Virus record (IMG/VR): IMGVR_UViG_3300045988_182734
Span: 1 to 64,000 of that record
Length of the DNA: 64,000 nucleotides
Strand: one strand, 5' to 3'
Source: a virus
Below, piece after piece: positions 7,588-61,874 of this stretch (position 1 is its first letter; each line of letters begins with the position of its first letter). A program made the translations under genes and the position numbers. The notes beneath the pieces were generated by a model, which was not told the origin of the DNA, searched no databases, and saw nothing but the letters and a program-made list of their open reading frames with translations.

Positions 7588-7615
7588 TTGCGGAATCGTG
7601 CGAATTGCAGACAAT
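7588..7615 (+). promoter_or_regulatory. Conserved-family promoter (TTGCGG-16-GACAAT, spacer contains CGTGCGAATTG)
   Basis: Member of the 16-copy promoter family seen across the window. Confidence 0.5.
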
Positions 7616-7685
7616 TAAAGACAGAGCGATTGTGAGATGGGGCGATACCGATGCAGTAGGAATGAGAATCTTAGCAGCTAAAAGA

Positions 7686-7990
7686 GTCAACAACCCCGCC
7701 TAAACCGGTTCGCCGGTTATAGACGGGGCTTGCGGGGCAACCTGTAAGCCCAGTTGATTAGCCTAAGCCCATTGCTCCGGCAGTGGGGAAAACTACGTTG
7801 TGTACTAATAATATAGGCACCTTATCCATGCTCCACAAGTGGTGAGCTCTGCAGGCGTTTCGTTAAACATCTCCGAGGGGAGGAGAAGTGCGAGCGTCAT
7901 GTCGAAAGGCTAAAACAGTGCATAACATTGGCGAAGTGGACCACAGGACGCAAGTCCTGACTTATAGTTTTATTACTATTTTACGAATGG
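7686..7990 (+). ncRNA. Conserved ~310-nt structured 5' leader element, copy 1 (upstream of flotillin)
   Basis: About 85% identical to 17060-17420. Nested hairpins CCCCGCCTA[AACCGGTTCGCCGGTT]ATAG(A/G)CGGGG. GNRA hairpin CAGGACGCAAGTCCTG covaries with copy 2. Confidence 0.45.
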
Positions 7991-8003
7991 AGAAACAAAA
8001 ATT

Positions 8004-9647
8004 ATGGTATATGTGATTGGAATTGTAGCAGCCCTGATTATTCTCTTTGGATTTCTCTGCTACAAGAAAGCTCCGCCCACGGAGGCTATCGTTGTAACTG
8101 GCTTTGGCCTGTCTAAGCCTAAAGTGGTTTGCGGAAAGGGTACATTTGTTCTGCCCGTTCTTCAACGGGCTGACCGACTGAATATGCGCCTTTTGAAAAT
8201 CGATGTCAAGACTCCTGAAACAGGTGTTAAGACGAAGAACGGCGTAAGTCTCTGGATTGACTCTGTTGTCACGATTCAAGTCTACAGCGAAAACTCTACT
8301 GTTCTGGATGAAGAAGTAAAAGCATCCGGTCTGAAAGACGCCAAGGCGTACATCATGTCCCGACAACAGGCAGCCATCTCGAACTTTCTGGGCATGAACG
8401 AGCAGGGCATCAATGAGAAAGTTAATGACGTTCTGCAGGGCAATTTGCGTGAGATTGTCTCTGACATGACCGTTGACCAAATTCTGACGAACCGCAAGCA
8501 GATGGCTGTGAGCGTTATCGAGAATGCTCGCCCCGACCTTGCTAAGATGGGACTTGAGGTCGTGACTTTTAATGTCCAGGACATCAGGGATGCAGTGGAT
8601 GTTCAAGGCCACAATCACGGCGTTATCGAAGCTATCGGCATCGAACAGGAAGAGCTCGTAAAGAAACAGGCTGAAATTGCCCGTGCTCAGGCTGCCCGTG
8701 ATGTAGCCTGCGCGAAGGCCGATGCTGAGATGGCTGCAAATGCCAAGGAAGTTGAAGCGCAGACTGCGATTGCAAAACGCAACAATGAATTGCAGCTCGC
8801 CAAGGCAAAGCTGAAAGCTGAAGCTGATAAAGCTGCGGCTGACGCAGATGCTGCCGGTCAGATTCAGATGAATCTCCGCGCCAAAGAAATCAAAGAAGCG
8901 GAAGCGGATGCTGAAATCGCCAAGCAGAAGAAAATGGTAGACCTTGCCGCACAGGAAGCCGAGGTCCAGCAACGCAAACTGGATGCGGAAGTCCGCAAAC
9001 AGGCAGATGCTGACCTGTACCGCCGCCAGAAAGAGGCAGAAGCCAAGAAATATGAGGCGGAACGTGCAGCTGAGGCACAGAAGTTCTCCAAGCAGCAGGA
9101 AGCAGAAGGCATTGAGCTTGTCGGTAAGGCAGAAGCTGAAGCCATTCGCCAGAAAGGCTTGGCTGAAGCGGAAGCCATGAAACAGAAAGCAGAGGCATAT
9201 AAGCAGTATAATGATGCGGCTGTGGCTGAAATGCTCATCAAGGTTCTTCCTGACATTGCCAAGAGCGTGGCTCAGCCTTTGTCCAGCATTGATAAGGTTT
9301 CTATCATTGGCGGTGATGCCTCCGGCGTATCCGGCGTTTCCGGGAATGTTCCTATCCTCATGGCTCAAACCATGCAGACGGTGAAAGAAGCGACCGGCAT
9401 TGACATGGGCGAAATTGCCCGTGCCAACAGCATCCAGGCAAAGACCGACCGCAACATCAACATTATGACACAAGGCAAACTGCCTGAGAATAGCCAAAAG
9501 GAAGGAGGTGACAAAGCAATGGAACGTGTAGAAGGCGGCTATCTAGTTCATGAGAAGACTCTCAACGGTGAGGAAATCACTCATTTTCGGCCGGATGTGA
9601 CCGAAGAGGAGAAAGCTATCATGAAAGACAAAAAGGCCAAAGATTAA
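8004..9647 (+). CDS. Flotillin / SPFH (band 7) family protein
   Basis: N-terminal TM segment, SPFH core, then a long Ala/Glu/Lys-rich coiled-coil repeat region. RBS GGAG. Confidence 0.85.
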   Translation: MVYVIGIVAALIILFGFLCYKKAPPTEAIVVTGFGLSKPKVVCGKGTFVLPVLQRADRLNMRLLKIDVKTPETGVKTKNGVSLWIDSVVTIQVYSENSTVLDEEVKASGLKDAKAYIMSRQQAAISNFLGMNEQGINEKVNDVLQGNLREIVSDMTVDQILTNRKQMAVSVIENARPDLAKMGLEVVTFNVQDIRDAVDVQGHNHGVIEAIGIEQEELVKKQAEIARAQAARDVACAKADAEMAANAKEVEAQTAIAKRNNELQLAKAKLKAEADKAAADADAAGQIQMNLRAKEIKEAEADAEIAKQKKMVDLAAQEAEVQQRKLDAEVRKQADADLYRRQKEAEAKKYEAERAAEAQKFSKQQEAEGIELVGKAEAEAIRQKGLAEAEAMKQKAEAYKQYNDAAVAEMLIKVLPDIAKSVAQPLSSIDKVSIIGGDASGVSGVSGNVPILMAQTMQTVKEATGIDMGEIARANSIQAKTDRNINIMTQGKLPENSQKEGGDKAMERVEGGYLVHEKTLNGEEITHFRPDVTEEEKAIMKDKKAKD

Positions 9648-9851
9648 AGACAACAAATGAAAAGAGGGTGACTCGAAAGAGCCATCCTTTTTTCTGTTGT
9701 GACGCAAACGAAAAGTTCATGGTAGCCATCCAATTAGGGTGACCGTCTTTTTTGCATGTTAAGGCTTTGTTGCTGAATTGTGCGAATTGAAGATAATTAA
9801 AAACAAAAGATGCTTTGTATCAAATCGATTGAAACCGAAGAGGTGAAGTTA

Positions 9852-10655
9852 ATGCTCGGCGTGAGTTTGATTATCATAGCAGCGGCTATAGTCTACATGG
9901 TCGAAACCTATATCAGCACCTATTACACTATCGAATACATGCACGGAACATCGCTGTTCCTTATCCTCCTTGCAAAATATGGCACTCTGGTTTTATTCCT
10001 GCTGCTCTGTGCCTACATTGTATATCGCAAAATACTCAAAAAGCAGAAAGCTGCTGCCCCTGCTGTACCAGAGCAGCCCACAAGCAAAGAAGAGCTGTAT
10101 ACCAACAAAATTCAAACGGCAGTAAAGACAAAAAGCGTCTTCTCAGAGCAGGCTGACCAAATGCTGTATCAGGTACGGCGCTTCGGGCAAAAAATGGCCG
10201 TTGCCTACAGCATGACCCAGGATAGCAAGACGTCCGGGGAACAAGCCAAGTGCCTGACGTTATTGGAATCCGCAGAACGTATCTTCTATGACCGACTGGA
10301 TGACGCGATTCGCTCGGCTTCAATGTTTGATGAAACGGAATACAAGGCTTTCTGTCAAGGCTCTATCTCGTTTGGAAACAAAGAAGAAGCGCAGAAAAAG
10401 AAAGAAATCTACAATGGTATCGTAAGTACCGTGGATAAGGTAGTTCATGACAATGAGCGCTTAATCCTCCGATTGGATTCTTTAGCATACGCTCTGAACC
10501 AACGTTCTACCCAGAATCCGTGGGATACAGAGGTTGTCCTCGCAATGTCAAAGCTCGATGCTGTCATTAACAAGACGACGCAGGATATTGAACAGGATGA
10601 AGATATCAGTCGTGAGGCTATGAAACGATATAACAACTTGAAAGGAGAAATTTAA
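9852..10655 (+). CDS. Membrane protein (2 TM) with cytoplasmic alpha-helical domain
   Basis: RBS GAGGTGA before ATG. Two hydrophobic helices, then a charged domain. Confidence 0.6.
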   Translation: MLGVSLIIIAAAIVYMVETYISTYYTIEYMHGTSLFLILLAKYGTLVLFLLLCAYIVYRKILKKQKAAAPAVPEQPTSKEELYTNKIQTAVKTKSVFSEQADQMLYQVRRFGQKMAVAYSMTQDSKTSGEQAKCLTLLESAERIFYDRLDDAIRSASMFDETEYKAFCQGSISFGNKEEAQKKKEIYNGIVSTVDKVVHDNERLILRLDSLAYALNQRSTQNPWDTEVVLAMSKLDAVINKTTQDIEQDEDISREAMKRYNNLKGEI

Positions 10656-10656
10656 C

Positions 10657-12351: not shown

Positions 12352-12364
12352 ATCTTCTTTAAGC

Positions 12365-12395
12365 TGTCCGCAATCACGCGGGCGGTTTTTTTGCT
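12365..12395 (+). terminator. Intrinsic terminator
   Basis: CCGC-aatcac-GCGGGCGG followed by TTTTTTT. Confidence 0.5.
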
Positions 12396-12426: not shown

Positions 12427-12509
12427 CAGAGTTAGAAAACAGGGCAAAGGAGCTGAGTACCATCTCAAAGTTTGCAAGCAAAAAGCTGATTGAGCGAAAT
12501 CGCAATATC

Positions 12510-12977
12510 ATGAAAGACTACGGAAACGGCTATTCCATTGAGGAGCTTGCCGCAAAATACAGGTTGAGCGTCCGTACATGCTATCGAGCGTTAGACGACG
12601 CGAAACAGGAGGCCAGAATTCAGTTGGCGCAGGTAGAGGATGCCAGGAAAGCCGAAATCCTTGCCGCATACAAAAATAGTGTTCCTCTCAAGGAAATGAT
12701 TGCGAAATTTCATGTGACAGAAGGGTATTGCAGCATGGTTGCCGATAATGCCGGGCTCACTGAAAACCGTAGAAATGAGCGCATCAAAATTCGGCAGAAA
12801 CCCCGCAATGAGAATATCTTTCGAGAATATGAGAGCGGCGTGCCGGTGCAGAAGCTATCCGAAAAATATCAGCTCTCGGTTCCGGGCATTTACAAAGTGA
12901 TTCAAAGAGTCAGAAAGCAGAAGGAGGCGATGAGTCTTGCAATGGATTGTCAAACAAACCAAATCGAAGGGGTATGA
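12510..12977 (+). CDS. Tandem helix-turn-helix repeat protein (3 HTH units)
   Basis: Repeats of the form KDYGNGYSIEELAAKYRLSVRTCYRAL. Start is uncertain; the ORF opens at 12396. Confidence 0.55.
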   Translation: MKDYGNGYSIEELAAKYRLSVRTCYRALDDAKQEARIQLAQVEDARKAEILAAYKNSVPLKEMIAKFHVTEGYCSMVADNAGLTENRRNERIKIRQKPRNENIFREYESGVPVQKLSEKYQLSVPGIYKVIQRVRKQKEAMSLAMDCQTNQIEGV

Positions 12978-16695: not shown

Positions 16696-16706
16696 AAAAT
16701 TTTTTC

Positions 16707-16745
16707 CCGTGTGAGCAGCGACACTCATGCGGGAATTTTTTTGTA
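16707..16745 (+). terminator. Intrinsic terminator
   Basis: CCCGTGTGAG-loop-CTCATGCGGG then TTTTTTT. Confidence 0.55.
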
Positions 16746-16811: not shown

Positions 16812-16850
16812 GTTGTCCCGCATGAGTTGTTCGTGCGGGATTTTTTGTTT
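16812..16850 (+). terminator. Terminator-like hairpin ~35 nt downstream of the promoter (possible attenuator)
   Basis: TCCCGCA-tgagttgttcg-TGCGGGA then TTTTTTG. Related in inverted form to the 16707 hairpin. Confidence 0.4.
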
Positions 16851-16868: not shown

Positions 16869-17075
16869 ATGTACGGCTTATCAGAAGAAAGCTTAACGAT
16901 TGTTGGTGTTATTTTGATTGTGGTTGGTGTCGCTATGATTGGTTGGGAATTTGAATGGAATCAGGACATTACCAATGATAAACGGGTCGGAACTGTTGTC
17001 AGAGACATTGGCGTTATGGTTTTGGCAACCGGCATCATATTTGTGACACAGCGGGCAGTCAACAACCCCGCCTAA
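16869..17075 (+). CDS. Small membrane protein (2 TM, 68 aa)
   Basis: RBS GGAAAGGGAATGAATT. The 3' end runs into the conserved leader element. Confidence 0.5.
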   Translation: MYGLSEESLTIVGVILIVVGVAMIGWEFEWNQDITNDKRVGTVVRDIGVMVLATGIIFVTQRAVNNPA

Positions 17076-17420
17076 ACCGGTTCGCCGGTTATAGGCGGGG
17101 CTTGCGGGGCAACCCGTAAGCCCGGTTGATTAGCCTTGGTGAACGGCAACTTCGGTTGCTGCGAACTCCGTTATGCATTTGATGAGCAATCATCTTCATA
17201 ATATAGGCACCCCGATTATGCTCCACAAGTGTCGGGCTCTGCGGGCAGTGTATGTGTCAATGACGCAAACCGTTGATATGTATTACGTTAAAAATCTCTA
17301 AGGGTAGGAGATGTGCGGCTGCCATGCCGAAAGGCTAAAACAGTGCATAACATTGGCGAAGTGGACCACAGGGCGCAAGCCCTGACTTATAGTTTCATTA
17401 CTATTTAACGAAAGGAGTAT
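17060..17420 (+). ncRNA. Conserved ~310-nt structured leader element, copy 2
   Basis: Shared 5' and 3' conserved blocks with copy 1. CAGGGCGCAAGCCCTG compensates for CAGGACGCAAGTCCTG. Ends at RBS AAGGAG. Confidence 0.45.
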
Positions 17421-19105: not shown

Positions 19106-20992
19106 TCACTGCACAATCTCGCCAAGGTCGTTTGCATATTTCGGGTCACACATCATGAAGTAGTTGACGGGGCCGTACTCCAGACCGAGCTCCTGCGCGT
19201 ATGCCTTGATAGCTTCCAGAACGTCCTCTTTCTTGAGGCCAAACTTGGAATGCAGACGGGCAAACTCTTTGTCAGAGACAGAAACGCAAGAGCAATTTTC
19301 TGCATCGGTTTCTTTGCTGCCCAGCATCCCGTCAAAGATGTCCTGCCCTGCACAGAGAATCGTCTCATTGTTCATCGCATAGGCGATAACGGAAGCCTTA
19401 CAGTCAAAGTCGCTGTTTTCCACAAGGAAATCCTCAGGGCGGCCGTGACGTTCAACAACGTTTTCATAGATGTCCCGGAGTTCGATAGGAGCAGAAGGAG
19501 CGGTCAGAGCTGCTTTATGAAGGCGCATGAATTCCACAAACTTTTCATTCGAGAGGGTATCGGTATAAAAGCCGATGCCGGAAACGCGAACCTTCACTTC
19601 GCTGGCAAAGTAATCGTCAATTTTGGAAACGATTTTCTGCTGGACCCGCTTGTATGCTTCCTGAACATTGGAAGCCGTGTAAAATACCGGGAACTTCATG
19701 ATGTCGATTCCCTCCGGCAGACTCGCGTCATAGGCCGCATCAATGCCGCCCCGCAGCGCCGGAACTGCGTCATGCAGCTCTTTCACAGAAGAAATGTATC
19801 CGGTAATGTACAGCTCATCGTTTTTGCTGTAATGCCCGATAAGTCCCACATAGAGGGTCTGCATCAGCATCCGCTTGAAGCTGAACCAACAAAGACGAAT
19901 AGGTAGAATGACATTAGCAGCCGTACCTTCCGCACGATAGGTGCCGGGGGCAGAGACCTTTTCCAGCAGAATCTGGTCATTCTTGTCGCCGTATTTTTCC
20001 TTGAAAAGAGCTTGAAGAATTTCAGTGGACGAAAGAGGAGTGGACATTGGAATCGTTTCATTCAGAAAAGAGAGGAATGCATCCACATTGTCTTTCTGCC
20101 ATGCGTCATCAGACATGCTTGCACGCTGCATAGAGAGCTTGTCTTTCCCGTCGTCAGGCAAGGGCTCATACCCGCAGGCGATACGAAGCTCGTTCTCCGT
20201 GACAGCATCCGTTGCGCTTGCAATTTTCTTGATGGTATTTTCGGTCGGCTGAGCTTTTGCGTTGCCATTCACGAGGCTGCTGATATACCCACGAGTCAGT
20301 CCTGCCTGAAACGCAAACTTACCCTGTGTTCGGGTTCCGATGGCTTTTTTGACCAGCGATGCCAGCCTTTGAAAGTCGGGCTCTTTGGGAAAGGTGGCCT
20401 CCGTATCCTTATTGCTGTTCTTTTCAAGTACCGACTTGTCCCAACCGGTGACAAGAGAATACCCAATATCCTTCAAGGATTGATAGGCAACCCCGTTCTG
20501 GTCAAGAGCCGGGGAGTATGTACCGCTGTTATCTTCCAGCTGCTCTACTGCGTCACGCACCATCCTTGCTTCGTTCATCAGGATGACGTCCGGGGCTTCA
20601 AGCCGGGCAAGACTCTTGTACCGATTATTGAGGCGCTCGACTCGTGCGGCCAATGCAGTGATGTTGGCAACTTGGTCTTCCGTTGCATGGGCAGAGATAT
20701 CTGCACCAAGTTCAAAATGGTTCAGTGCAGGAATATCCACGCCTTTGCTCTTGGCGAATTCCACAATGGCTTCCGCGCCATAGAAACGCTTCTCATGGGC
20801 TGCGACAACTTTCGTTATCGTGTCGGCCGAGTTGTCCAGCTCAAGCACTTCACCTTTTCCGGCATCCTCGACATAACACCTGGCGTTGGTGAGAAAGCCT
20901 TTCAAAAAATCAGCATCCACATCCAGCTTCTTAGCGATGCCGGGCAGCTGCTTATAGAAAATCACGGGCGTGGCGAGGTTAACAGAAATCAT
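19106..20992 (-). CDS. Large (628-aa) protein with central XRE-family HTH domain, divergently oriented
   Basis: RBS AAAGGAG. Cro/C1-type HTH IGTRTQGKFAFQAGLTRGYISSLVNGNAKAQPTENTIKKIASA. Flanking domains unknown. Confidence 0.7.
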   Translation of the reverse strand: MISVNLATPVIFYKQLPGIAKKLDVDADFLKGFLTNARCYVEDAGKGEVLELDNSADTITKVVAAHEKRFYGAEAIVEFAKSKGVDIPALNHFELGADISAHATEDQVANITALAARVERLNNRYKSLARLEAPDVILMNEARMVRDAVEQLEDNSGTYSPALDQNGVAYQSLKDIGYSLVTGWDKSVLEKNSNKDTEATFPKEPDFQRLASLVKKAIGTRTQGKFAFQAGLTRGYISSLVNGNAKAQPTENTIKKIASATDAVTENELRIACGYEPLPDDGKDKLSMQRASMSDDAWQKDNVDAFLSFLNETIPMSTPLSSTEILQALFKEKYGDKNDQILLEKVSAPGTYRAEGTAANVILPIRLCWFSFKRMLMQTLYVGLIGHYSKNDELYITGYISSVKELHDAVPALRGGIDAAYDASLPEGIDIMKFPVFYTASNVQEAYKRVQQKIVSKIDDYFASEVKVRVSGIGFYTDTLSNEKFVEFMRLHKAALTAPSAPIELRDIYENVVERHGRPEDFLVENSDFDCKASVIAYAMNNETILCAGQDIFDGMLGSKETDAENCSCVSVSDKEFARLHSKFGLKKEDVLEAIKAYAQELGLEYGPVNYFMMCDPKYANDLGEIVQ

Positions 20993-21604: not shown

Positions 21605-21834
21605 ACACCACAGAGCAAAAAGCAAACCCAGCCTGCAGTAAAATGCGGGTAGGACTTATTTGTTTGCGTAGCTGCATCCTTTTGTCCGCAGAAACCGTAG
21701 GTGCCAGGATGCGTAGCAGCCAACATGATTTGACTTGCCGTGCGAGTCCCATACAATCAAATCTGTACGAAAGATACTATGCACACAATAGAATTCACAC
21801 TAAGCTGCTCAGTGGCCATATGGCTATTGGGTAG

Positions 21835-21863
21835 CTTTTTCTTTTGTGCGAACTGCGTACAAT
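21835..21863 (+). promoter_or_regulatory. Conserved-family promoter (weak -35, spacer TTGTGCGAACTGCG, TACAAT)
   Basis: Family member. Confidence 0.4.
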
Positions 21864-44415: not shown

Positions 44416-44690
44416 ACGTCGCAGTCACCGTACGCCACGACGTTAAACTTGGTGAGCATGGTCCACTTGTGGTCCGCTGTCGAATTGCTAATGGACAGCC
44501 TCAAAACGAATAGGCAAACAGGTGCTGTGCCTGAAAGTATTCGAAAGTCCCGGTGTTAGTCGCGAATAAGACCGGAAAACGGTGAAGAGGGTACAATACA
44601 GAATCTATCGGCGTGGCTACCGAATGGTGCTGGACGCGGGGTTGGCTTCCTCGCTGAAGGGGTGATAACCAGCATAAAACACCCTGCCGT

Positions 44691-44766
44691 GCTAGTGTAG
44701 CTCAGTTGGTAGAGCAGCTGATTCGTAATCAGCAGGCCGTCAGTTCAAATCTGACTATTAGCCCCA
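44691..44766 (+). tRNA. tRNA-Thr (anticodon CGT)
   Basis: Anticodon stem GCTGA/TCAGC, loop TTCGTAA, T-loop TTCAAAT, CCA encoded. Confidence 0.75.
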
Positions 44767-44796
44767 TTACCCGATGAAACAATAAATAGAAAGGAG

Positions 44797-45189: not shown

Positions 45190-45219
45190 CGCTATTTGGC
45201 GGGCTTGACCCGCCATCAT

Positions 45220-45295
45220 GGAGGGATAGCTTAGCTGGATAAAGCACCTGCCGCAAAGCAGGGTATCGATGGTTCGAGGCCATCTCCCTTCTCCA
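45220..45295 (+). tRNA. tRNA-like gene with aberrant anticodon loop (6-nt CGCAAA or 8-nt CCGCAAAG); isotype unassigned
   Basis: Good acceptor (GGAGGGA/TCCCTTC), D-arm (GCTT AGCTGGATA AAGC), T-arm (GATGG TTCGAGG CCATC) and CCA, but the anticodon arm cannot form a 5+7+5 structure. Confidence 0.4.
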
Positions 45296-45654
45296 TCCAG
45301 ACACCCTTTCGCTTCCTTTCGCCAAAGGTATCTGGGGTATTGTACTGCATTACGTGTAGTACGGCCAATCAGGCGCGGAACTCCGAAACCATACCACGAA
45401 GAATTTTATCCTCTCCGCGCAGCATGGACATGCGATTTTACGGGGATGAATTCAAACCGAAATTGTGTCGAGTGGCGAAGACGGTTGCGGCACTGGCGAA
45501 GCACATATCTGCTTCGTCAACCATCCATGAGAAAGCCTCCACGTGGCAGATGGTGGGCAACGCAGCAATGCTGCGGCTGATTTCTTTCAAACCGGTATCT
45601 GAATAAATGCAGATAAATAGACGAAAAAATCAAAAAAGCAAAGGAGTACACAGC

Positions 45655-46773
45655 ATGAGTAATCAGAAAATCATCAAAGCAATCGCAGGGATTGCAGCAG
45701 CCGGTATGATGGCAACTTGTCTGCCTGTCGCAGCATTCGCAGCCACCGGCGACACCTATCATTTCTCTTTCAGCAACGGTTCTTCCCAGGACCTGGCTCC
45801 GGGCGGCTCTATGACGTTCCCGGCAAGCCAGTATGACTACGGTTACTGGATTACCCTGCAGGGCCACGGCGGCTACACCTACAACTACTATCCCGGCGAC
45901 ACTCTGCCGTACGATGCAGTTGACCAGTGGTTCACCGCTGACGGCATCACTTCCTGCTATGCGGCCGAAGGTAATCCGCGTTCCATCACCATCAACTATC
46001 AGATTGACGGTAACACTGTGCTGACCGAAACTGACACCGCCACTTTCCCCGGCAGCGTTGATGGTCAGAGCGTTGAAGCCTGGACCACCGATTCCGGCGA
46101 TACTTACACCGCGTCCAGCAAGAGCCTGAACCATGACCGCCTGTTCTACTACCTGGGCGATGACATTCACGACAATGTCCTGACCCTGAAAGCCACTACT
46201 GCATCCACTCCCGATGACGGCAAGGATGACAACAAGGGCGATGACAAGGGCGATGTCACCAACCCTGACGATAAGGGCGACAATACCGGCGACAGCGGCA
46301 CCACCACTCCCGATGACAAGGGCGACGTAGTGGCCCCCGATAAGGACAACACCGGTAAGGATAACACTTCTACCGGCTCCAACAAGGGCAACGGTACTAC
46401 CACTACTCCGACCGCTCCTCGCAAAAACGTTGAAGTCTCTGAGCACGGTGAAATTGCCGCCGCCATTGCCAATGGCACCTGGGGCAATGAGTACACCGTC
46501 TGCACCAGCTGTGGCTATCACAACTGGACCCGCAAGGGTAACGTTTACGTCTGTGACCATTGTGGTCACGAAGTCCTGACTGTCAAGGGCGCTGATGGCG
46601 TCAAGGGTTATGCTGGCACTCTGGCTGGCAATGAACCCCAGTACGCTTCTACCTCTGAAGCTCAGGCTGCTGCCGAAAAGCGTGAAGCTGCTTATGCCGC
46701 TTCTATCGCTGCTCTGCAGGCACAGGTTGCCGCTCGTGAAGCTGCTTATGCCGCTTCCCTGGGCATCCACTAA
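45655..46773 (+). CDS. Secreted protein with Asp/Gly/Lys-rich linker and C-terminal Cys4 ribbon-like motif
   Basis: RBS AAAGGAG. Signal peptide ending AAFAATG. CTSCGYHNW...CDHCGHE. Confidence 0.7.
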   Translation: MSNQKIIKAIAGIAAAGMMATCLPVAAFAATGDTYHFSFSNGSSQDLAPGGSMTFPASQYDYGYWITLQGHGGYTYNYYPGDTLPYDAVDQWFTADGITSCYAAEGNPRSITINYQIDGNTVLTETDTATFPGSVDGQSVEAWTTDSGDTYTASSKSLNHDRLFYYLGDDIHDNVLTLKATTASTPDDGKDDNKGDDKGDVTNPDDKGDNTGDSGTTTPDDKGDVVAPDKDNTGKDNTSTGSNKGNGTTTTPTAPRKNVEVSEHGEIAAAIANGTWGNEYTVCTSCGYHNWTRKGNVYVCDHCGHEVLTVKGADGVKGYAGTLAGNEPQYASTSEAQAAAEKREAAYAASIAALQAQVAAREAAYAASLGIH

Positions 46774-46814
46774 TTTGCCATCCTCTGACGATATCCGATA
46801 ATTTTCTCCTTGCT

Positions 46815-46848
46815 GTGGGGCGGGGCTTCGGCTCCGCCCCATCCTTTT
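46815..46848 (+). terminator. Intrinsic terminator
   Basis: GGGGCGGGGC-ttcg-GCTCCGCCCC then ATCCTTTTTT. Confidence 0.65.
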
Positions 46849-46850
46849 TT

Positions 46851-46939
46851 GGTCAGGTGTCCGAGCGGTTTAAGGAACTGGTCTTGAAAACCAGCGACGC
46901 CAAAAACGTCCGTGGGTTCGAATCCCACTCTGACCGCCA
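46851..46939 (+). tRNA. tRNA-Ser (anticodon TGA)
   Basis: Type II tRNA with long variable arm, anticodon loop CTTGAAA, G73, CCA encoded. Confidence 0.8.
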
Positions 46940-46941
46940 TG

Positions 46942-46975
46942 TTTGCCGGGGCTTCCCGGCTTTTTGTTTTTTTGT
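46942..46975 (+). terminator. Intrinsic terminator
   Basis: GCCGGGGC-ttc-CCGGC then TTTTTGTTTTTTT. Confidence 0.6.
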
Positions 46976-47007
46976 AAGTGACACAAGGAAACAGATTGCT
47001 GTATTGA

Positions 47008-47664
47008 ATGAGGCAATGTATACTAAAGAAAAAGGATAAGGCAGGAAAGGACTATTTCCGAGCACACGTTGCGGCTGTAGCGGAAGGTGTAAAAGGGGAC
47101 CCTGTTGCTGAAACTGTGGCATTTCTGCATGATACTGTCGAAGATACGTCCATCACAATAGAAGACATCAGAACGGGGTTTCCAAAAGAAGTTGCTGACG
47201 CTGTAAGTGCGTTGACCCATAGCAAGGGTATATCGTACGCTGAATATCTTTGGTATATTCAGCAAAATTCTATTGCTGTCAAAGTAAAGCTCTCGGACCT
47301 GCGCAGCAATATGGACTTAACCAGGCTCCCTCACGCTCCAACCAAAAAAGACGCGGAAAGAACCAGAAAATACAAGCGGACATATACGATTCTATCGTCG
47401 GCGAATGGTGTAAACGCTATCAATCCGTATGCGCTGTACGACTACTTGCTGGCAAGAAACTGGAGTGTTGATAGGATAAGCACAAGGACACCCGTTCTGG
47501 AAGCACCAGGCGGCTATGCTGAAATCATGGTGCCCTTCGACCTGGCTTTGGCTGACTACGAGCCCAAGGTGGCTAACGCTTTAGGCGCGTTGTGCTCGTA
47601 TGAGGGCATACCGCTCTCGGATGCGATAGCACGGATTGCGGCTTGGAAACCAGACATGCACTGA
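47008..47664 (+). CDS. HD-domain protein, RelA/SpoT-type (p)ppGpp hydrolase-like (small alarmone hydrolase candidate)
   Basis: AFLHDTVEDT matches the SpoT/Mesh1 HD signature LHDxVEDT. Start uncertain. Confidence 0.5.
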   Translation: MRQCILKKKDKAGKDYFRAHVAAVAEGVKGDPVAETVAFLHDTVEDTSITIEDIRTGFPKEVADAVSALTHSKGISYAEYLWYIQQNSIAVKVKLSDLRSNMDLTRLPHAPTKKDAERTRKYKRTYTILSSANGVNAINPYALYDYLLARNWSVDRISTRTPVLEAPGGYAEIMVPFDLALADYEPKVANALGALCSYEGIPLSDAIARIAAWKPDMH

Positions 47665-47752
47665 GTACAAACCTGATATTGTAAACGTCAGCCGGGAAAA
47701 CCCACGACTAAAGCCGTTGGATGAAAGGCATTCAAGTAAAATAAAAAAAGTT

Positions 47753-47783
47753 GCTGTCTATCTTCGGATAGGCAGCTTTTTTG
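47753..47783 (+). terminator. Intrinsic terminator
   Basis: GCTGTCTATC-ttcg-GATAGGCAGC then TTTTTT. Confidence 0.6.
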
Positions 47784-47784
47784 G

Positions 47785-47812
47785 TTGCGTTAATGTGCGA
47801 AATGGATAAATT
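47785..47812 (+). promoter_or_regulatory. Conserved-family promoter (TTGCGT-16-TAAATT)
   Basis: Spacer TAATGTGCGAAATGGA. Upstream of tnpB. Confidence 0.45.
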
Positions 47813-47837
47813 AAATAATAGAAGGTGGTGATAAGCA

Positions 47838-48983
47838 ATGCCTATGCAAAAACTAAATAGAGCAATAAAATATCGTGCATATCCTACACCTGAGCAGCAG
47901 GTGTTGCTTTCTAAAACCTTCGGCTGCGTTCGCTTTGTCTGGAATCATATGCTGACGGACGCGCGGCAATTTTTGAATGAAGCAGGGACGTTTTTTATTC
48001 CAACTCCTGCTAAATACAAAAAAGAGTTTCCGTTTCTGAAAGAAGTGGATAGCCTTGCACTCGCTAATGCACAGCTTGATTTGAAAGAAGCACGTAAGAA
48101 GCATCGAGAGAACCCTAAAAGCTGTGGCGCTCCCAAACTCAAGAGTAAGCGCAAAAGTAAAATGTCTTATACAACAAACACTCATTCATACAAAACGAAT
48201 GATGGCCATGTTGTACATACAATCGCGCTTGGATATGACTCCATCAGGTTACCAAAAATTGGATGGGTAAAAATCAACAAGCATCGTGAGCCGGAAGCCA
48301 ACTGGGTGCTGAAAAGTGCTACCGTAAGCTGTACCCGCAGCGGCAAATACTTTATTTCGCTGCTGTACGAGTTTGAGAAAGACATTCAGTCCATTAAGCC
48401 TACAAAAGAGACTTCTCTTGGGTTGGATTACTCTTCTCACGACTTCTATGTTGACAGCAACGGCAATGTGGCCAACTATCCAAGATTCTACCGTCAGAGT
48501 GAAGCAAAACTTGCAAGGGCACAGCGTAGGCTATCGCGTATGCAGTTTGGCTCCCATCACTATGACAAACAGCTTTATAGAGCTCGAGTCCTTCAGGAAC
48601 ATGTTGTCAACCAGCGCAAGAACTTCTGCCATACGGTAAGTACTGCGATAGCCAAACAGTATGATGCCGTATTTGTAGAAGATATCAATTTGCGCGGTTT
48701 GGCTGGTTCTCTGAAATTAGGGAAATCCACTAACGACAATGGCTTCGGTATGTTTCGCACGATGTTGGAGTATAAGCTTGCATCGCAGGGAAAGACCTTT
48801 GCCAAAATCGATAAGTGGTATCCTTCCAGCAAAACTTGCAGCGTGTGCGGCTTTATAAAAGATGACCTCACACTTGCTGACCGCAGCTGGACATGCAGTG
48901 CTTGTGGAACCACACACAACCGTGACCACAATGCTGCCATTAACATTCGCACTGTAGGATTATTATGGCTCTATCCCGCGTAG
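47838..48983 (+). CDS. tnpB: TnpB (IS200/IS605-family OrfB, RuvC-like RNA-guided nuclease)
   Basis: YRAYPTPEQQVLLSKTFGCVRFVWN N-terminus, zinc finger CSVCG...CSACG, RuvC-III HNRDHNAAINI. Confidence 0.9.
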   Translation: MPMQKLNRAIKYRAYPTPEQQVLLSKTFGCVRFVWNHMLTDARQFLNEAGTFFIPTPAKYKKEFPFLKEVDSLALANAQLDLKEARKKHRENPKSCGAPKLKSKRKSKMSYTTNTHSYKTNDGHVVHTIALGYDSIRLPKIGWVKINKHREPEANWVLKSATVSCTRSGKYFISLLYEFEKDIQSIKPTKETSLGLDYSSHDFYVDSNGNVANYPRFYRQSEAKLARAQRRLSRMQFGSHHYDKQLYRARVLQEHVVNQRKNFCHTVSTAIAKQYDAVFVEDINLRGLAGSLKLGKSTNDNGFGMFRTMLEYKLASQGKTFAKIDKWYPSSKTCSVCGFIKDDLTLADRSWTCSACGTTHNRDHNAAINIRTVGLLWLYPA

Positions 48984-49200
48984 TCCATTCCACCCCCGCT
49001 ATGCCGCTTGCAACGGCGGTGAAAGCATACTGTACTCGGTCGCACGGACGGAAACCGTGCCTAACAGTCCGTCGAGTATGAATTTATGGAGTCCTGCGGG
49101 ACTTCAAGCCCCCACGTTAAGGTGGGGGTAGTTGACTCCGTTTGTCGCAGGTTCAAATCCTGTACAACCCGCCATATGCTCCAGTGGCGAAACTGGCAAA
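48984..49200 (+). ncRNA. Candidate omega-RNA / right-end structured RNA of the TnpB element, with tRNA-like T-arm and CCA-like 3' end
   Basis: Long-range stem GGAGTC..GACTCC enclosing perfect hairpin CCCCCAC-gttaag-GTGGGGG, followed by GCAGGTTCAAATCCTGTACAACCCGCCA. Confidence 0.3.
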
Positions 49201-49239
49201 CGCGACGGTTTTAAGTCCCCCGGCCGGAGCATTTATCAT

Positions 49240-49315
49240 AGGGGTATAGCTCAAGTGGTAGAGCAGCGGTCTCCAAAACCGCTTGTTGCATGTTCGAGTC
49301 GTGTTACCCCTGCCA
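49240..49315 (+). tRNA. tRNA-Trp (anticodon CCA)
   Basis: Acceptor AGGGGTA/TACCCCT, anticodon loop CTCCAAA, T-loop TTCGAGT, G73, CCA encoded. Confidence 0.8.
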
Positions 49316-49320
49316 CAATA

Positions 49321-49352
49321 AGAAAAGCCGTCCTCACATAAGAGGCGGCTTT
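49321..49352 (+). terminator. Intrinsic terminator
   Basis: AAGCCGTCCTC-acataa-GAGGCGGCTT then TTTGTTTTG. Confidence 0.5.
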
Positions 49353-49684
49353 TTGTTTTGAAGAGTATACAGACCAAAAAACTAAACCACAAGTTGATTG
49401 CGAACTTGCGAAAACATGGTATAATAATATCAGAACGAAACGAAAGGAGATACCCCAAAATGCTGTGCAACACTGTTAATGTCATGTCGTATGAGTATAG
49501 TTACGAATATTCTGAGTTCATGTCCTTTGAACGCAGTTTTATTTCTCATACTCCTCGACAGGCAAAAACAGACCATGTACAGATGCGGTGCGTCTTCTAA
49601 GCGATAACTGCATGTCATAGCTGCTTGTCGAGATTTCGGCAGGCAGCTTTTTTGTTGCCTGCAATACAGAAAGGCAGCAAGAAA

Positions 49685-49906
49685 ATGAACGTTCCTACTA
49701 TCGATATTCAGAAAACTGGTGCCAACATTAAGACGCTGCGAAAAGCAGCAGGTATCAAGGTGAAAGATGTGGCGGATACACTCGGCGTATCCACGCAGGC
49801 AGTTGCCAAATGGCAAGCTGGAACCGCGCTTCCAACCATTGATAACCTTGTGATATTGGCAGCGATGCTGGATACCAAGATAGATGACATCTTAGTCATC
49901 GCATAA
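49685..49906 (+). CDS. XRE-family HTH transcriptional regulator (73 aa)
   Basis: LRKAAGIKVKDVADTLGVSTQAVAKWQAG Cro/C1-type HTH. Start at internal ATG of the 49625 ORF. Confidence 0.7.
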   Translation: MNVPTIDIQKTGANIKTLRKAAGIKVKDVADTLGVSTQAVAKWQAGTALPTIDNLVILAAMLDTKIDDILVIA

Positions 49907-49933
49907 TCCCCGCCGCATGATGCGGCATCATAT

Positions 49934-50010
49934 GGCCTGCTCGACGAATAGGGTAAGTCATCAGTTTCTCAGACTGAAGGTTGTGGGTTCGACTCCCACG
50001 CAGGTCACCA
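49934..50010 (+). tRNA. tRNA-Glu (anticodon CTC)
   Basis: Acceptor GGCCTGC/GCAGGTC, anticodon stem TCAGT/ACTGA, loop TTCTCAG, T-loop TTCGACT, CCA encoded. Confidence 0.65.
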
Positions 50011-50013
50011 TAT

Positions 50014-50089
50014 GCTTCTGTAGCTCAGTTGGTAGAGCAGTGGTCTGAAGAACCGCGTGCAGTTGGTTCAATTCCAACCGGAAGCACCA
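50014..50089 (+). tRNA. tRNA-Phe (anticodon GAA)
   Basis: Acceptor GCTTCTG/CGGAAGC, anticodon loop CTGAAGA, T-loop TTCAATT, CCA encoded. Confidence 0.8.
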
Positions 50090-50092
50090 TAT

Positions 50093-50177
50093 GCGTCGGT
50101 ATGCAAGTGGATAAAGCAGGCAGTCTGTAAAACTGTTCCGTTACGGTTCGCTGGTTCGAATCCAGTCCGACACACCA
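50093..50177 (+). tRNA. tRNA-Tyr (anticodon GTA)
   Basis: Type II with long variable arm. Anticodon stem GCAGT/ACTGT, loop CTGTAAA. One C-A mismatch at acceptor pair 2-71. Confidence 0.75.
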
Positions 50178-50181
50178 ATAT

Positions 50182-50255
50182 GGCCCCTTCGACAAATTGG
50201 TCCAAGTCACCACGCTTTCACCGTGGAGTTAGCAGTTCGAGTCTGCTAGGGGTCA
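50182..50255 (+). tRNA. tRNA-Glu (anticodon TTC), CCA not encoded
   Basis: GGCCCCTTCG... start as in bacterial tRNA-Glu. Anticodon stem CCACG/CGTGG, loop CTTTCAC, T-loop TTCGAGT. Confidence 0.7.
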
Positions 50256-50287
50256 CTACGTCGCACCTACGTTAAAAGGTGCATTAT

Positions 50288-50377
50288 GCAGAGGTCGCCT
50301 AACGGTAGGGCAGCAGCTTGCTAAGCTGCCGTCGCGGAAATCGCGGCATGTGAGTTCGAATCTCACCCTCTGCGCCA
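50288..50377 (+). tRNA. tRNA-Ser (anticodon GCT)
   Basis: Type II. Acceptor GCAGAGG/CCTCTGC, anticodon stem GCAGC/GCTGC, loop TTGCTAA, G73, CCA encoded. Confidence 0.8.
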
Positions 50378-50380
50378 TCT

Positions 50381-50468
50381 GCTTGCTTGTTCGAGTGGTT
50401 GATGAAATCGGTCCAGAAAACCGACGATGGGAGACTGTCCGAAGGTTCGAATCCTTCAGCAAGCGCCA
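50381..50468 (+). tRNA. tRNA-Ser-like (type II, G73) with non-canonical anticodon loop CCAGAAA (C33; nominal anticodon AGA)
   Basis: Acceptor GCTTGCT/AGCAAGC, Ser-type D-arm GATGAAATCGG, stem TCGGT/ACCGA, long variable arm, T-loop TTCGAAT, CCA encoded. Confidence 0.55.
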
Positions 50469-53693: not shown

Positions 53694-53822
53694 TTGCATA
53701 AATGTGCGAACCGCCTAAAATAATAATTGCATAACAGATACCATCACTTACCTCCTAACTGAACATTAACAATCTGTCATGCTTGTAAGCAGACTCTCTT
53801 TTGAGGGCCTGCTTATTTTTTA
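53694..53822 (+). promoter_or_regulatory. Promoter + short leader + intrinsic terminator, module E
   Basis: TTGCAT-16-TAAAAT, ~70-nt leader, terminator AAGCAGAC..GAGGGCCTGCTTATTTTTT (same family as 55017). Confidence 0.45.
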
Positions 53823-54934: not shown

Positions 54935-55052
54935 TTGGGGCTGCATGTGCAAACTCAGCAAAATATCAACCGCACGATAGGAGCAAGTTCGAACGAACAA
55001 TTCATCGTGCAAACAAAGCAGACTCTCGATTCTTGAGGGCCTGCTATTTTTT
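54935..55052 (+). promoter_or_regulatory. Promoter + conserved leader + intrinsic terminator, module D
   Basis: Leader CGCACGATAGGAGCAAGTTCGAACGAACAATTCA, terminator AAGCAGACTCTCGATTCTTGAGGGCCTGCTATTTTTT. Confidence 0.45.
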
Positions 55053-55633: not shown

Positions 55634-55768
55634 TTGCACATCCTTGCGAATTCCATAGTATTAAAGTTGTACGACAGATAACATCTACTTGGCACGCCGC
55701 GTGCTCGTACAATTCATAATTCTGTTCTCATTCAAGGCAGACCCATCTTCATGATGGGCCTGCCTTTT
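55634..55768 (+). promoter_or_regulatory. Promoter + conserved leader + intrinsic terminator, module B
   Basis: TTGCAC-16-TAGTAT, then GTACGACAGATAACA, hairpin GCACG/CGTGC, CGTACAATTCA, terminator AGGCAGACCCATC-ttca-GATGGGCCTGCCTTTTTTT. Confidence 0.5.
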
Positions 55769-55863
55769 TTTGTTTACAGAAAAAGGAGGAATTCAAAACA
55801 AACCACAAATCTCAAATCACAATCTTCCGCTACAAGGAAAAGACACAAAAAAGGAGTCACAAA

Positions 55864-60299: not shown

Positions 60300-60430
60300 T
60301 TGCGGATTTATGCGAACGGGTTAAGATATAAATTGTACGATAGATAACAGATATCGAAAAGGCATCCTGCCCTTCGCACACTTAACAATGCGCTTTAGGC
60401 GAACTTCCCATTTGGGCGGTTCGCCTTTTT
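60300..60430 (+). promoter_or_regulatory. Promoter + conserved leader + intrinsic terminator, module C
   Basis: TTGCGG-16-TAAGAT, then GTACGATAGATAACA, hairpin AAAGGCA/TGCCCTT, terminator AGGCGAAC-ttcccatttgggcg-GTTCGCCTTTTTG. Confidence 0.5.
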
Positions 60431-60721: not shown

Positions 60722-61294
60722 ATGTTCATTCTTATCAAAAATCAGGAAGGCGAAAGCATGAACTTGCTTTCCCAGAATACCGATTTCAACGCTCTACTGG
60801 CAGCCATGAAAACTGACATTGAGGCAGAGTACGAAAAGGCAACAGGTTATGCGATTGACCTTGACGAGGATTCCGGCAGCGATTATGAAGTCGGTATCAA
60901 CGTTGAGGACAGTGCAGCAGACGGTTTCTGCCTTGCGTCCGGGTATATGTACGGCGCAGACAGCAACTTTGACTGGGGCATTTTCAAAGTAAAGTCTCAG
61001 AAAAACAATGTTGCAGCGAAACCCTACATTGGCTTGGATATGAACGAGTTCTTTCGGCAGAAAATGCTGCTGATTGACTTGTCGGCAAAAGTGAAGGACC
61101 TTGGCTATGACCTTCTGGCCGATGAACTTTGGGGCACAATCGGTGTCTTCGACGCTGTACAGAATTCAGCTGAAGGAGACGGTGTTTTCACTGCTCCGGA
61201 AGCGGATGAAGAAACCGGTCTGTTCCTTGACGATTTTTATAACGACGTTCTGGAAAAGATTCTGAACGCCGACAAGAAAAAGGAGGAAAAGTAA
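60722..61294 (+). CDS. Hypothetical acidic protein (190 aa)
   Basis: RBS AGGAGG. Confidence 0.65.
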   Translation: MFILIKNQEGESMNLLSQNTDFNALLAAMKTDIEAEYEKATGYAIDLDEDSGSDYEVGINVEDSAADGFCLASGYMYGADSNFDWGIFKVKSQKNNVAAKPYIGLDMNEFFRQKMLLIDLSAKVKDLGYDLLADELWGTIGVFDAVQNSAEGDGVFTAPEADEETGLFLDDFYNDVLEKILNADKKKEEK

Positions 61295-61297
61295 GCC

Positions 61298-61783
61298 ATG
61301 AAACTCTACATCCAAGGCGAACACGGTAAGCCCTTAACTTTCACCCCGGAAGAAATCAAGGAGAAGCTCGGTATTCCATTCGATATCGCTGCTCTTGGCA
61401 TCGAGGTAGATGATGGCGACACCACCATCAGGGCTCAGTCATACCCCAAATGGGATTATCAGAACGGGAACCCGCCCATCGACCTCTGCGTCAATGAAAT
61501 GCAGGTTGGCTCACTGGCTATGCCGACGTCCGACATTCCGGCTCCCGTCATTTATCTCTATGATGAACAGGGGCAGGATGAATCGGATTGGTTTGCATGT
61601 ACCAGCTTTGCGCCTCGTGCTTCTGGTGACGAAAGTTCTCACGTCGTCTTCTGTGACATGAGTTTTGGCAATGCGTTTGCGACCACAGACGCTTTTGTGA
61701 ATCCGCGCAAGGAAGCTTCTTTCGTGCAGTGTTCCACTGAGAATCAACTTTCTGATTTCAGGAAAGCTGATTCCCACGAATAA
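61298..61783 (+). CDS. Hypothetical protein (161 aa)
   Basis: RBS AAGGAGGAAAAG. Confidence 0.65.
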   Translation: MKLYIQGEHGKPLTFTPEEIKEKLGIPFDIAALGIEVDDGDTTIRAQSYPKWDYQNGNPPIDLCVNEMQVGSLAMPTSDIPAPVIYLYDEQGQDESDWFACTSFAPRASGDESSHVVFCDMSFGNAFATTDAFVNPRKEASFVQCSTENQLSDFRKADSHE

Positions 61784-61802
61784 CATCTGACTCATATCTT
61801 TG

Positions 61803-61833
61803 CGGTCGTTCCTTCGGGAGCGGCCGCTTTTTT
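61803..61833 (+). terminator. Intrinsic terminator
   Basis: GCGGTCGTTCC-ttcg-GGAGCGGCCGC then TTTTTTG. Confidence 0.5.
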
Positions 61834-61846
61834 GTTTTCAGTTTCC

Positions 61847-61874
61847 TTGCGCAAATGTGCGAGTCTCATAAAAT
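61847..61874 (+). promoter_or_regulatory. Conserved-family promoter (TTGCGC-16-TAAAAT)
   Basis: Spacer AAATGTGCGAGTCTCA. Confidence 0.5.

Follow-up and report, generated by a model that had tools for sequence, protein, structure and literature searches.

What reads a word that lies between the -35 and -10 elements of a whole set of promoters? The question is raised by a 64,000-nucleotide stretch of viral DNA (IMG/VR record IMGVR_UViG_3300045988_182734, positions 1 to 64,000; hereafter the window), which is part of a large uncultivated phage from gut samples and in which an earlier note had described at least 16 near-identical promoters with an invariant spacer core. Analysis of the window reveals that these promoters, here called box promoters after their spacer word TGTGCGAA (the box), are a discrete, strand-specific class in rigid register, and that about one third of them are fused to a structured leader RNA ending in an intrinsic terminator.

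The word TGTGCGAA occurs 12 times in the window against 3.04 copies expected, and none of 100 shuffled sequences contained 12 or more. Eleven of the 12 copies are located on the plus strand, each 5 nt upstream of a TAnAAT hexamer, and a TTG-type -35 element is present 3 nt upstream of the word in 10 of these 11; the departures at -35 are the copy at 21845, which is without one, and the copy at 32144, which has TCGACA. From the box promoter sites we derived a position weight matrix (PWM) of 36 nt; scanned over both strands of the window, it gave 21 matches of at least 15 bits, all of them on the plus strand, against 0 to 1 in shuffled sequences. The scores are bimodal, with the best minus-strand match at 8.2 bits and nothing between 8.2 and 15 bits. 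In total, the window contains 21 discrete promoter-like sites and one degenerate copy, all on the plus strand, and genes from 7.4 kb onward are almost all on this strand as well. The common layout is TTG(C/A)nn, 3 nt, TGTGCGAA, 5 nt and TAnAAT, with a rigid spacer that measures 16 bp in 20 of the 21 sites and 17 bp in one. Every GTGCGAA on the plus strand of the window (12 of 12) stands in promoter register and none is free-standing. A scan of 20 kb with a generic sigma-70 consensus found 30 sites where 25 were expected; since this consensus is not enriched, it is the extra spacer word that defines the promoter class.

The family is therefore real and larger than the 16 members first counted. 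Fourteen of those 16 positions are strong members, scoring 26-47 bits with the PWM, and six further members had been overlooked (-35 elements starting at 7421, 16019, 18907, 21207, 21730 and 30818). The two remaining positions are less regular. The site given as 51083 is a member, but it has the 17-bp spacer and reaches 15 bits, whereas the site given as 54935 is a degenerate promoter of less than 8 bits with a leader-like RNA of 31.9 bits downstream. We have kept the latter (54937 in our coordinates) in the family because of this leader-like RNA, whose first helix, P1, is preserved through a compensatory change; it is probably a decayed family member. The term invariant was too strong for the spacer core, as the exact TGTGCGAA is present in 11 of the 22 sites and the core TGCGAA in 15.

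Two classes can be told apart. Class A promoters lead through a 5' untranslated region (UTR) of about 30-45 nt straight into genes, and class B promoters are those fused to the leader RNA and terminator. The promoters of the window are as follows, with their PWM scores.

7421 to 7448, plus strand: promoter TTGCGC-CGC-TGTGCGAA-CCTCA-TAAAAT, 32 bits
7588 to 7615, plus strand: class A promoter of a HEARO RNA and a flotillin-like gene, 42 bits
9770 to 9797, plus strand: class A promoter, 44 bits
12399 to 12426, plus strand: class A promoter directly after the terminator 12361-12388, its first gene a helix-turn-helix (HTH) array paralog, 42 bits
13609 to 13636, plus strand: class A promoter, 47 bits
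16019 to 16046, plus strand: weaker member with box CGTACGAT, 24 bits
16754 to 16781, plus strand: class A promoter after the terminator 16704-16735, followed by the terminator 16815-16841 and a HEARO-like RNA, 41 bits
18907 to 18934, plus strand: weaker member with box ATTGCGGG, directed toward a minus-strand gene, 21 bits
21207 to 21234, plus strand: weaker member with box CGTGCAAA and a degenerate downstream box, 27 bits
21730 to 21757, plus strand: class B promoter with box CGTGCGAG, heading a short leader, 18 bits
21836 to 21863, plus strand: class A promoter with box and -10 only and no recognisable -35, 31 bits
24157 to 24184, plus strand: class A promoter of the helicase operon, whose group 2 ortholog keeps the box, 26 bits
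30818 to 30845, plus strand: class B promoter with box TATTCGAA, 23 bits
32135 to 32162, plus strand: class B promoter, 33 bits
37138 to 37165, plus strand: class A promoter of the HTH-array and AAA+ ATPase operon, 34 bits
47785 to 47812, plus strand: class A promoter of TnpB (phrog_506 match), 32.5 bits
51082 to 51110, plus strand: member with a 17-bp spacer, TTGTGA-GAA-ATTGCGAA-TCGCGG-TATAAT, 15 bits in shifted register
53694 to 53721, plus strand: class B promoter, 38 bits
54937 to 54964, plus strand: degenerate promoter TGTGCAAA with poor -35 and -10, less than 8 bits
55634 to 55661, plus strand: class B promoter with box CTTGCGAA, 31 bits
60300 to 60327, plus strand: class B promoter with box TATGCGAA, 29 bits
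61847 to 61874, plus strand: class A promoter with box TGTGCGAG, 37 bits

Does this promoter belong to the phage or to its host? A strict pattern, TTGCNNAANTGTGCGAANTG, was searched in viral contigs and in 185,579 bacterial and archaeal genomes, one per species. It is present in at least 117 viral contig stretches, and about 80 loci contain the full promoter, often in 2-6 copies on one strand. As a handle independent of the motif, the AAA+ ATPase of the window was used for grouping the contigs. Group 1 (ATPase 95-98% identical to that of the window) comprises more than 60 contigs of 27-222 kb, group 2 has an ATPase 57-59% and a helicase 53% identical to those of the window, and group 3 (ATPase 64% identical) includes contigs of up to 247, 268 and 389 kb. 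Relatives at 52-56% ATPase identity have neither box promoter nor leader, a 189-kb contig included. This box-less contig repeats a motif containing TTGACA.

In the species genomes, the 120 matches listed come from unrelated phyla, and about 280 would be expected by chance. Among the matches listed, the full promoter is found in one, a 224-kb contig of a metagenome-assembled genome (MAG) labelled 'Clostridiales bacterium' (L221), which is probably a binned phage. With only one of the 120 listed matches carrying the full promoter, the promoter is not a host consensus, and its specificity for the phage family, as opposed to a housekeeping consensus of the host, is supported. The earlier view of an element-specific promoter set carried by a phage thus holds: the strict pattern is not host-wide among the matches listed from the 185,579 genomes, and the viral contigs that carry it fall into three related groups. 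The host is probably a Bacillota (Clostridia) species.

A motif search outside the window, proposed earlier as a way to delimit the element, reveals that box promoters continue past the right end and are also present in a locus (L010) placed about 8-19 kb upstream of the left end. Nearly all rightward operons of the phage family start with a box promoter. The accessory island at the left of the window (1-7400) has no box promoters; it contains a minus-strand operon with a plain TTGCGA-18-TAAAAT candidate promoter. The island is variable (L327, L328): one variant has a type I restriction-modification system, whereas another has YpsA, TnpB, a HipA-like gene and a polymerase of the Y family.

Comparison of 67 non-redundant sites shows where the information lies. 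The TGCGA core holds the best-conserved positions of all (1.6-2.0 bits each), followed by the TTG of -35 (1.6-1.9 bits per position), then by A(-11) and T(-7), and then by a G at -15, and there is zero conservation upstream of -35. In the -10 hexamer, whose consensus is TAcAAT, A14 has 1.5 bits and T18 has 1.6 bits, and no position exceeds 1.6 bits. A TTG(A/C) at -35 is present in 66 of 76 class A and in 26 of 28 class B non-redundant sites. The asymmetric TGCGAA is located at about -23 to -18, and the conserved word of 6-8 bp spans -25 to -18 with its centre at about -21. The -35, the -10 and the spacer length match the sigma-70/sigma-A type, with the predicted start about 7 nt after the -10. 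Because the TGCGA positions carry more information than those of the -10, a base-specific reader of the spacer is required, as had been proposed from the conserved spacer of the window.

Loci fetched with a box pattern are biased toward the box, and the analysis was redone on sites found through the leader alone. In this set, 25 of 32 non-redundant sites carry the box at the fixed offset, and the core shrinks to TGCGAA; the rest are mostly chance matches in coding sequence, together with two copies of an atypical promoter and one promoterless leader. Between groups 1 and 2, orthologous promoters (those of the helicase, of the HTH-array operon and of the gene at 32307) keep the box while the -35 and parts of the -10 differ, which argues for selection on the word and not for recent copying.

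Several familiar spacer or promoter signals were tried and rejected. An operator of the MerR type does not fit, as the spacer is 16 bp long rather than 19-20 bp and has no dyad, and a sigma-54 promoter, which has GG and GC doublets exactly 10 nt apart (-24/-12), does not fit either, as the distances between the starts of the TGC words (10 and 7 nt) give the wrong spacing and a sigma-70-type -10 is present. Compared by eye, none of the consensus sites of sigma-54, sigma-H, sigma-E/K, LexA, TnrA/GlnR, CRP/FNR and PurR matches. A tandem direct repeat of the -35 region and the box was also dropped, since TTGCGAA stands at -35 in only 3 of 76 sites; the count of TTGCnnAA that seemed to support it was discounted, being biased by the pattern used for fetching loci. 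Literature searches with the 8-mer and the 7-mer returned unrelated primer or sequence matches only.

What distinguishes class B lies downstream of the start. In 111 of 117 class B sites, the conserved TTGTACGATAGATAaCA begins at a fixed distance from the box, 25 nt, and thus on the predicted start or immediately beside it. The leader is about 105 nt long and folds into a three-way junction, the first strand of which lies at the predicted transcription start, followed by a strong intrinsic terminator 20-35 nt before the ribosome-binding site. Helix P1 is formed by UUGUACGA and, about 40 nt further on, UCGUACAA; P2 consists of a conserved UAGAU and a variable complement; P3 is a hairpin whose sequence is wholly different between copies and yet always paired; and the linker AUUCACAAUUUCGCUUAAA is conserved. 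The 5' domain with the three-way junction gave z scores of -2.2 to -4.6 in 10 of 12 diverse examples folded, and the terminator has 8 pairs with compensatory changes. In the model-based leader alignment, 95.5% of the cells are paired against 41-50% with slid partners, and none of 500 shuffles reaches the observed value. Covariation is hardly informative for P1, both strands of which are near-invariant; the helix is preserved in the copy at 54968 through a U-A to C-G change and has an A-C mismatch in two copies.

A covariance model of the leader finds three strong and five weaker copies in the window and 35 copies across groups 1-3, but no copy in the box-less relatives. A search of Rfam gave no match at the leaders with E values of up to 1, and the class B leader is a previously undescribed RNA. 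The leaders of the window, with covariance model scores where these apply, are listed below; ORF stands for open reading frame.

after the promoter at 7421, plus strand: degenerate leader and terminator ending near 7588, no ORF (fold)
21761 to 21838, plus strand: short leader-like RNA ending in the terminator 21802-21837, no ORF (18.3 bits, E 0.32)
30833 to 30935, plus strand: degenerate leader and terminator before a metallo-beta-lactamase (MBL)-fold hydrolase gene (34.4 bits, E 3.5e-4; fold); the alignment begins within the promoter and the leader proper runs from near 30849
32166 to 32272, plus strand: leader RNA with three-way junction, linker and terminator, start codon at 32307 (96.2 bits; fold z = -3.7)
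53725 to 53818, plus strand: degenerate leader and terminator (32.8 bits, E 6.7e-4)
54968 to 55050, plus strand: leader-like RNA and terminator, P1 kept as GCACGA / UCGUGC (31.9 bits, E 1e-3; fold)
55665 to 55769, plus strand: leader RNA and terminator before a tail-lysozyme-domain gene (82.5 bits)
60331 to 60430, plus strand: leader RNA and terminator (86.4 bits)
63559 to 63660, plus strand: leader-like RNA and terminator, no recognisable box promoter upstream (30.9 bits, E 1.5e-3)

The initially transcribed region of class B contains a -10-like hexamer in 96% of sites against 59% expected, and TACGAT stands at about +3 in 24 of 28 sites. In class A, such a hexamer is present in 36% against 43% expected, and the 5' UTR has no leader terminator. 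The presence of a structured leader and an intrinsic terminator on about one third of the promoters points to control after initiation. For the same reason, the earlier description as an early promoter set typical of phages needs to be modified: it is a phage set, but not simply an early one. Many tandem promoter-terminator units on one strand are also known from the host-takeover module of SPO1 and from the early promoters of T5 and T7; there, however, the conserved parts are essentially the host consensus elements, whereas in the box promoters conservation is highest in a spacer word that belongs to no consensus.

Structured RNAs near the 5' end of an operon and upstream of terminators are known from lambda nut, HK022 put and the Bacillus EAR and LoaP leaders. 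Unlike these, the class B leader has no sequence or Rfam match, starts at the predicted transcription start, has an invariant closing helix and its own terminator, and is present in many copies. No antiterminator pairing that would compete with the 5' arm of the terminator was seen by inspection. A mini-ORF, M-Y-D-R, at the 5' end of the leader was rejected for want of a conserved stop codon. We also considered whether the same reader might bind the downstream box as a second DNA site, but prefer an RNA helix, because the UCGUACAA strand is conserved at variable distance and one copy has a compensatory change.

Class B units are not confined to the heads of genes. The units at 7421-7588 and 21730-21838 consist of promoter, leader and terminator without an ORF and are candidates for stand-alone small RNAs, and a locus placed just upstream of the window holds seven class B units in 11 kb. 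In the related locus L253, a leader box near 18192 directly follows a terminator hairpin and has no box promoter upstream; leaders may thus be reached by read-through transcription as well. Two further arrangements were observed in the window. The promoter at 16754 is followed about 50 nt on by the strong terminator 16815-16841, whose stem resembles the complement of the upstream terminator 16704-16735. The stretch 49399-49426, which lies before the second tRNA cluster, contains TGCGAA twice in tandem at a distance of 8 bp and, behind the pair, the extended -10 TGGTATAAT; the two words do not stand in the family register.

How might such a promoter work? The closest parallels are the sites of antitermination factors that bind DNA. 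A Q loading site has three components: the element bound by Q, which lies between -35 and -10; a -10-like element within the initially transcribed region; and, further downstream, a terminator (PMC6606751). The HTH of 21Q reads 6-bp words near -21 and -13 (PMC6606751), and that of AlpA reads one 6-bp word between -35 and -10 (PMC9371919). The -10-like hexamer of the initially transcribed region pauses the sigma-containing polymerase, and the loaded polymerase ignores the downstream terminator (PMC6606751, PMC9371919). Class B has the same three cis elements, namely spacer word, -10-like hexamer and downstream terminator, in the same order as the lambdoid Q site (qut at PR') and the AlpA site (PalpB).

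We therefore tentatively favour, with a probability of roughly 0.4 for the account as a whole, that the box promoters are the standard promoters of the phage, at which sigma-A of the host initiates, a phage HTH factor docks on TGCGAA, and class B is governed in the manner of Q or AlpA. The host sigma-A RNA polymerase would initiate at both classes, and TGCGAA would be the docking site of a phage-encoded HTH factor acting on the polymerase in a fixed geometry. At class B, the bound factor would engage a polymerase paused at the -10-like hexamer, and the polymerase so loaded would read through the leader terminator, as with lambdoid Q or Pseudomonas AlpA; class B operons might then lag behind, having to wait for a class A operon to supply the factor. 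In class A, docking could serve promoter specificity or strength, or else read-through of distant terminators at the ends of operons.

A reader of the box was sought in DNA that covers at most one third of a group 1 genome. The earlier note had suggested looking outside the window for a sigma or anti-sigma gene, but Pfam and PHROGs searches of the window and 10 kb beyond each end reveal no sigma, anti-sigma or RNA polymerase gene, and tblastn of 2.5 Mb of related loci, with an approximate query (the C-terminal part of E. coli sigma-70), finds no sigma-70 homolog; nor was an RNA polymerase gene seen in these loci. In the window and flanks, no protein of the Q or AlpA families was found either; the best match, to PF06530 at E = 0.007, is below the cut-off and falls in a generic HTH. 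Candidate DNA readers of the box, by co-occurrence, are the HTH arrays, four genes built from modules of about 55 amino acids with weak matches to HTH families.

37278 to 39271, plus strand: three consecutive genes with arrays of 3, 3 and 6 HTH modules (Pfam HTH_23, HTH_28, Mor and Sigma70_r4)
12432 to 12977, plus strand: fourth HTH-array paralog with 3 modules, start codon uncertain (translation; tblastn)

All four genes lie behind class A promoters, and three of them are beside the AAA+ ATPase, a generic Cdc48/FtsH-type protein. In each of groups 1, 2 and 3 the arrays adjoin the ATPase, whereas the genes around the ATPase of the box-less relatives include no such array. Comparison of the arrays with solved structures gave no informative relative. 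Giant ORFs beside box promoters were considered as virion RNA polymerases and rejected: one encodes a fibre- or adhesin-like protein that is rich in T/G/D/N, has glycine-rich and YDG domains and shows no polymerase motif, and the second is its antisense shadow.

Several observations weigh against the account favoured here. Class A has the best-conserved boxes, yet neither pause element nor leader terminator, and the scheme of Q and AlpA therefore covers class B only. Q and AlpA act at one site per genome, whereas here there are dozens, more than half of them class A, and the hosts are probably Gram-positive. The Q or AlpA homolog looked for in the window and its flanks was not seen, and neither Q nor AlpA requires an RNA structure, whereas here a leader fold is conserved between start and terminator. 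Between groups, the HTH arrays share only 28-37% identity, and the recognition helices vary from repeat to repeat; arrays so diverged fit poorly with the reading of an invariant word. Moreover, box and leader are invariant while core genes are 53-64% identical, and the partner could instead be a conserved one of the host. An extended form of the account, in which a genome-wide Q-like network with dozens of sites per genome runs the temporal programme of these phages of Gram-positive gut bacteria, the spacer word being read by a new kind of polymerase-associated factor (possibly the HTH arrays with their sigma-region-4-like modules) and a start-anchored leader RNA gating the terminators, appears doubtful.

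Alternatively, the box might be the asymmetric operator of a global phage repressor or shut-off factor that occupies every early and middle promoter and occludes the polymerase, either in maintenance of a prophage or plasmid-prophage or in a late switch-off. The word is asymmetric, present in many copies and dispersed over the genome, and the promoters look self-sufficient, with TTGCCA or TTGACA at -35 and TAnAAT at -10. The box centre at about -21 is about one helical turn from the -35, on the face of the polymerase, and judged from this geometry a separate protein bound there should clash with the polymerase. A match to a PHROG 'partition protein' in a related contig (L019:12687-13658) hints at a plasmid-prophage lifestyle, and no capsid, portal or terminase gene has so far been seen behind a box promoter, the structural-type matches being proteins with immunoglobulin (Ig) or tail-lysozyme domains. 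The operators of P1 C1 and the gp71 sites of mycobacteriophage L5 are likewise asymmetric, multi-copy, dispersed and promoter-overlapping, and stand in one orientation. However, the register of the box to the two hexamers is rigid (3 nt and 5 nt in essentially all sites) and the word never stands alone, and a repressor needs neither; P1 C1 operators vary in position. In addition, no repressor or integrase was identified, for the sole Xre-type gene, at 19106-20992, the related loci fetched contain no counterpart, and the partition-protein match is unsupported by solved structures. We give this possibility a fair chance, though a smaller one than the account favoured above.

A sigma factor might instead read the whole 28-bp unit, either as a phage sigma-A-like protein with an extra surface or through a spacer preference of host sigma-A or its polymerase. 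The rigid register and the sigma-70-family type of the -35 and -10 are what this would predict, and invariance of the box across diverged groups is expected of a slowly evolving host reader. Nevertheless, the sigma-70 homolog sought with the approximate tblastn query in 2.5 Mb of loci, and with Pfam and PHROGs in the window and flanks, did not appear; no bacterial genome among the matches listed has multiple copies of the pattern; and the accessory island of the same phage is box-less, with a plain sigma-70-like candidate promoter. We know of no sigma-70-family factor that reads some 6 bp at -23 to -18. These points make a sigma reader unlikely. The middle promoters of T4 offer a partial precedent. 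There, the AsiA and MotA proteins appropriate the host sigma, and the MotA box, centred near -30, replaces the -35. T4 likewise marks a large promoter set with a phage-specific word upstream of a normal -10; here, however, the -35 is retained and the word is centred at about -21, so that the MotA-dependent type does not apply, and no MotA or AsiA homologs were seen.

The box could also be the site of a conserved host transcription factor that couples the phage promoters to host physiology. Early promoters of phi29 carry Spo0A sites and stall in sporulating cells, the 0A box being TGNCGAA. The word TGTGCGAA resembles this box plus one base, and its invariance suggests a conserved partner in hosts that are likely Clostridia, to judge from the MAG label of L221. 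But the extra base breaks the 0A register (no register of TGTGCGAA or TGCGAA gives the 7-mer TGNCGAA), the word stands at every promoter, and the strict register to the hexamers is unneeded for such a sensor. No Bacillota regulator site known to us matches the box, and we consider a host factor of this kind improbable. Finally, that the spacer similarity is functionless, left by a promoter cassette spreading through duplication or recombination, is hardly credible, for although several class A copies in the window are near-identical over about 34 nt, variable and invariant positions are interleaved within the unit, the flanks are unrelated, and the orthologs with a helicase 53% identical change the -35 and parts of the -10 but keep the box.

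The surroundings of the box promoters contain other features of the phage. Phage-type genes of the window include a helicase, a methyltransferase, TnpB and a tail-lysozyme domain, and many proteins have no family match. Megablast of 20 kb against GenBank phages gave no match, protein-level searches found remote relatives only, and an exact look-up of the helicase was without match. The RNAs of the window comprise 12 tRNAs, a hepatitis delta virus (HDV)-like ribozyme and a HEARO RNA.

The HEARO RNA (7686-7946; 91 bits against a gathering score of 83) lies behind a class A promoter and precedes the flotillin-like gene at 8004-9647. A second copy at 17058-17371, sub-threshold at 50.7 bits, is likewise located behind a class A promoter. 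Both end in CAGGrCGCAAGyCCTGACTTATAGTT, and neither is followed by an IscB-type ORF. The transposon-derived TnpB (IS605 OrfB-type, 47785-48983) has a family-type promoter 44 nt upstream, as it does in the loci L079 and L047, and appears to use the phage's own promoter code.

The twelve tRNA genes are spread over 43791-50468 in two clusters; the one at 45220-45295 is odd in that ARAGORN assigns it a two-base anticodon. The HDV-like ribozyme at 43706-43786 (RF02682, 49 bits) stands directly 5' of the tRNA-Thr at 43791, an arrangement reminiscent of the tRNA-associated ribozymes of gut phages, and sub-threshold copies at 43935-44006 and 45520-45587 lie in the same tRNA-rich region.

An EcoRI-type adenine methyltransferase (28028-30168; PF13651, E = 9e-132) lies in an island of 39% GC, and this low GC suggests that the island was recently acquired. 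A radical-SAM gene and its neighbour (33310-34516) are 88-92% identical between groups whose helicases are 53% identical, which suggests exchange between the groups or very strong constraint; a link of the pair to 7-deazaguanine synthesis is possible. On the minus strand, 19106-20992 encodes a 628-amino-acid protein with a central Xre-type HTH, faced by the weak promoter at 18907. Among the proteins of related contigs are one of giant size, with 2956 or more amino acids, rich in T/G/D/N and with glycine-rich and YDG domains (L037:2-8872), and an anaerobic ribonucleotide reductase (L017:2128-4350).

Phage-specific promoter classes and Q-type sites are already known; what is new here is the word itself, its presence at nearly every rightward operon of the family and the fact that it is linked, many times over, to a leader not described before. 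The phage is very common in gut metagenomes: one collection contains more than 60 near-identical contigs, and one protein cluster has over 2,000 member sequences. The transcription programmes of uncultivated gut phages are almost unknown, and in this family a clean cis code predicts operon boundaries, two promoter classes and a new RNA. If the box docks a polymerase-associated factor, control of the Q and AlpA type, familiar from single late promoters in Gram-negative systems, would be at work genome-wide in phages that probably infect Clostridia. As markers, the promoter and leader motifs could identify the phage family and help to orient and annotate its contigs; they could also serve as portable regulated parts for gut Bacillota.

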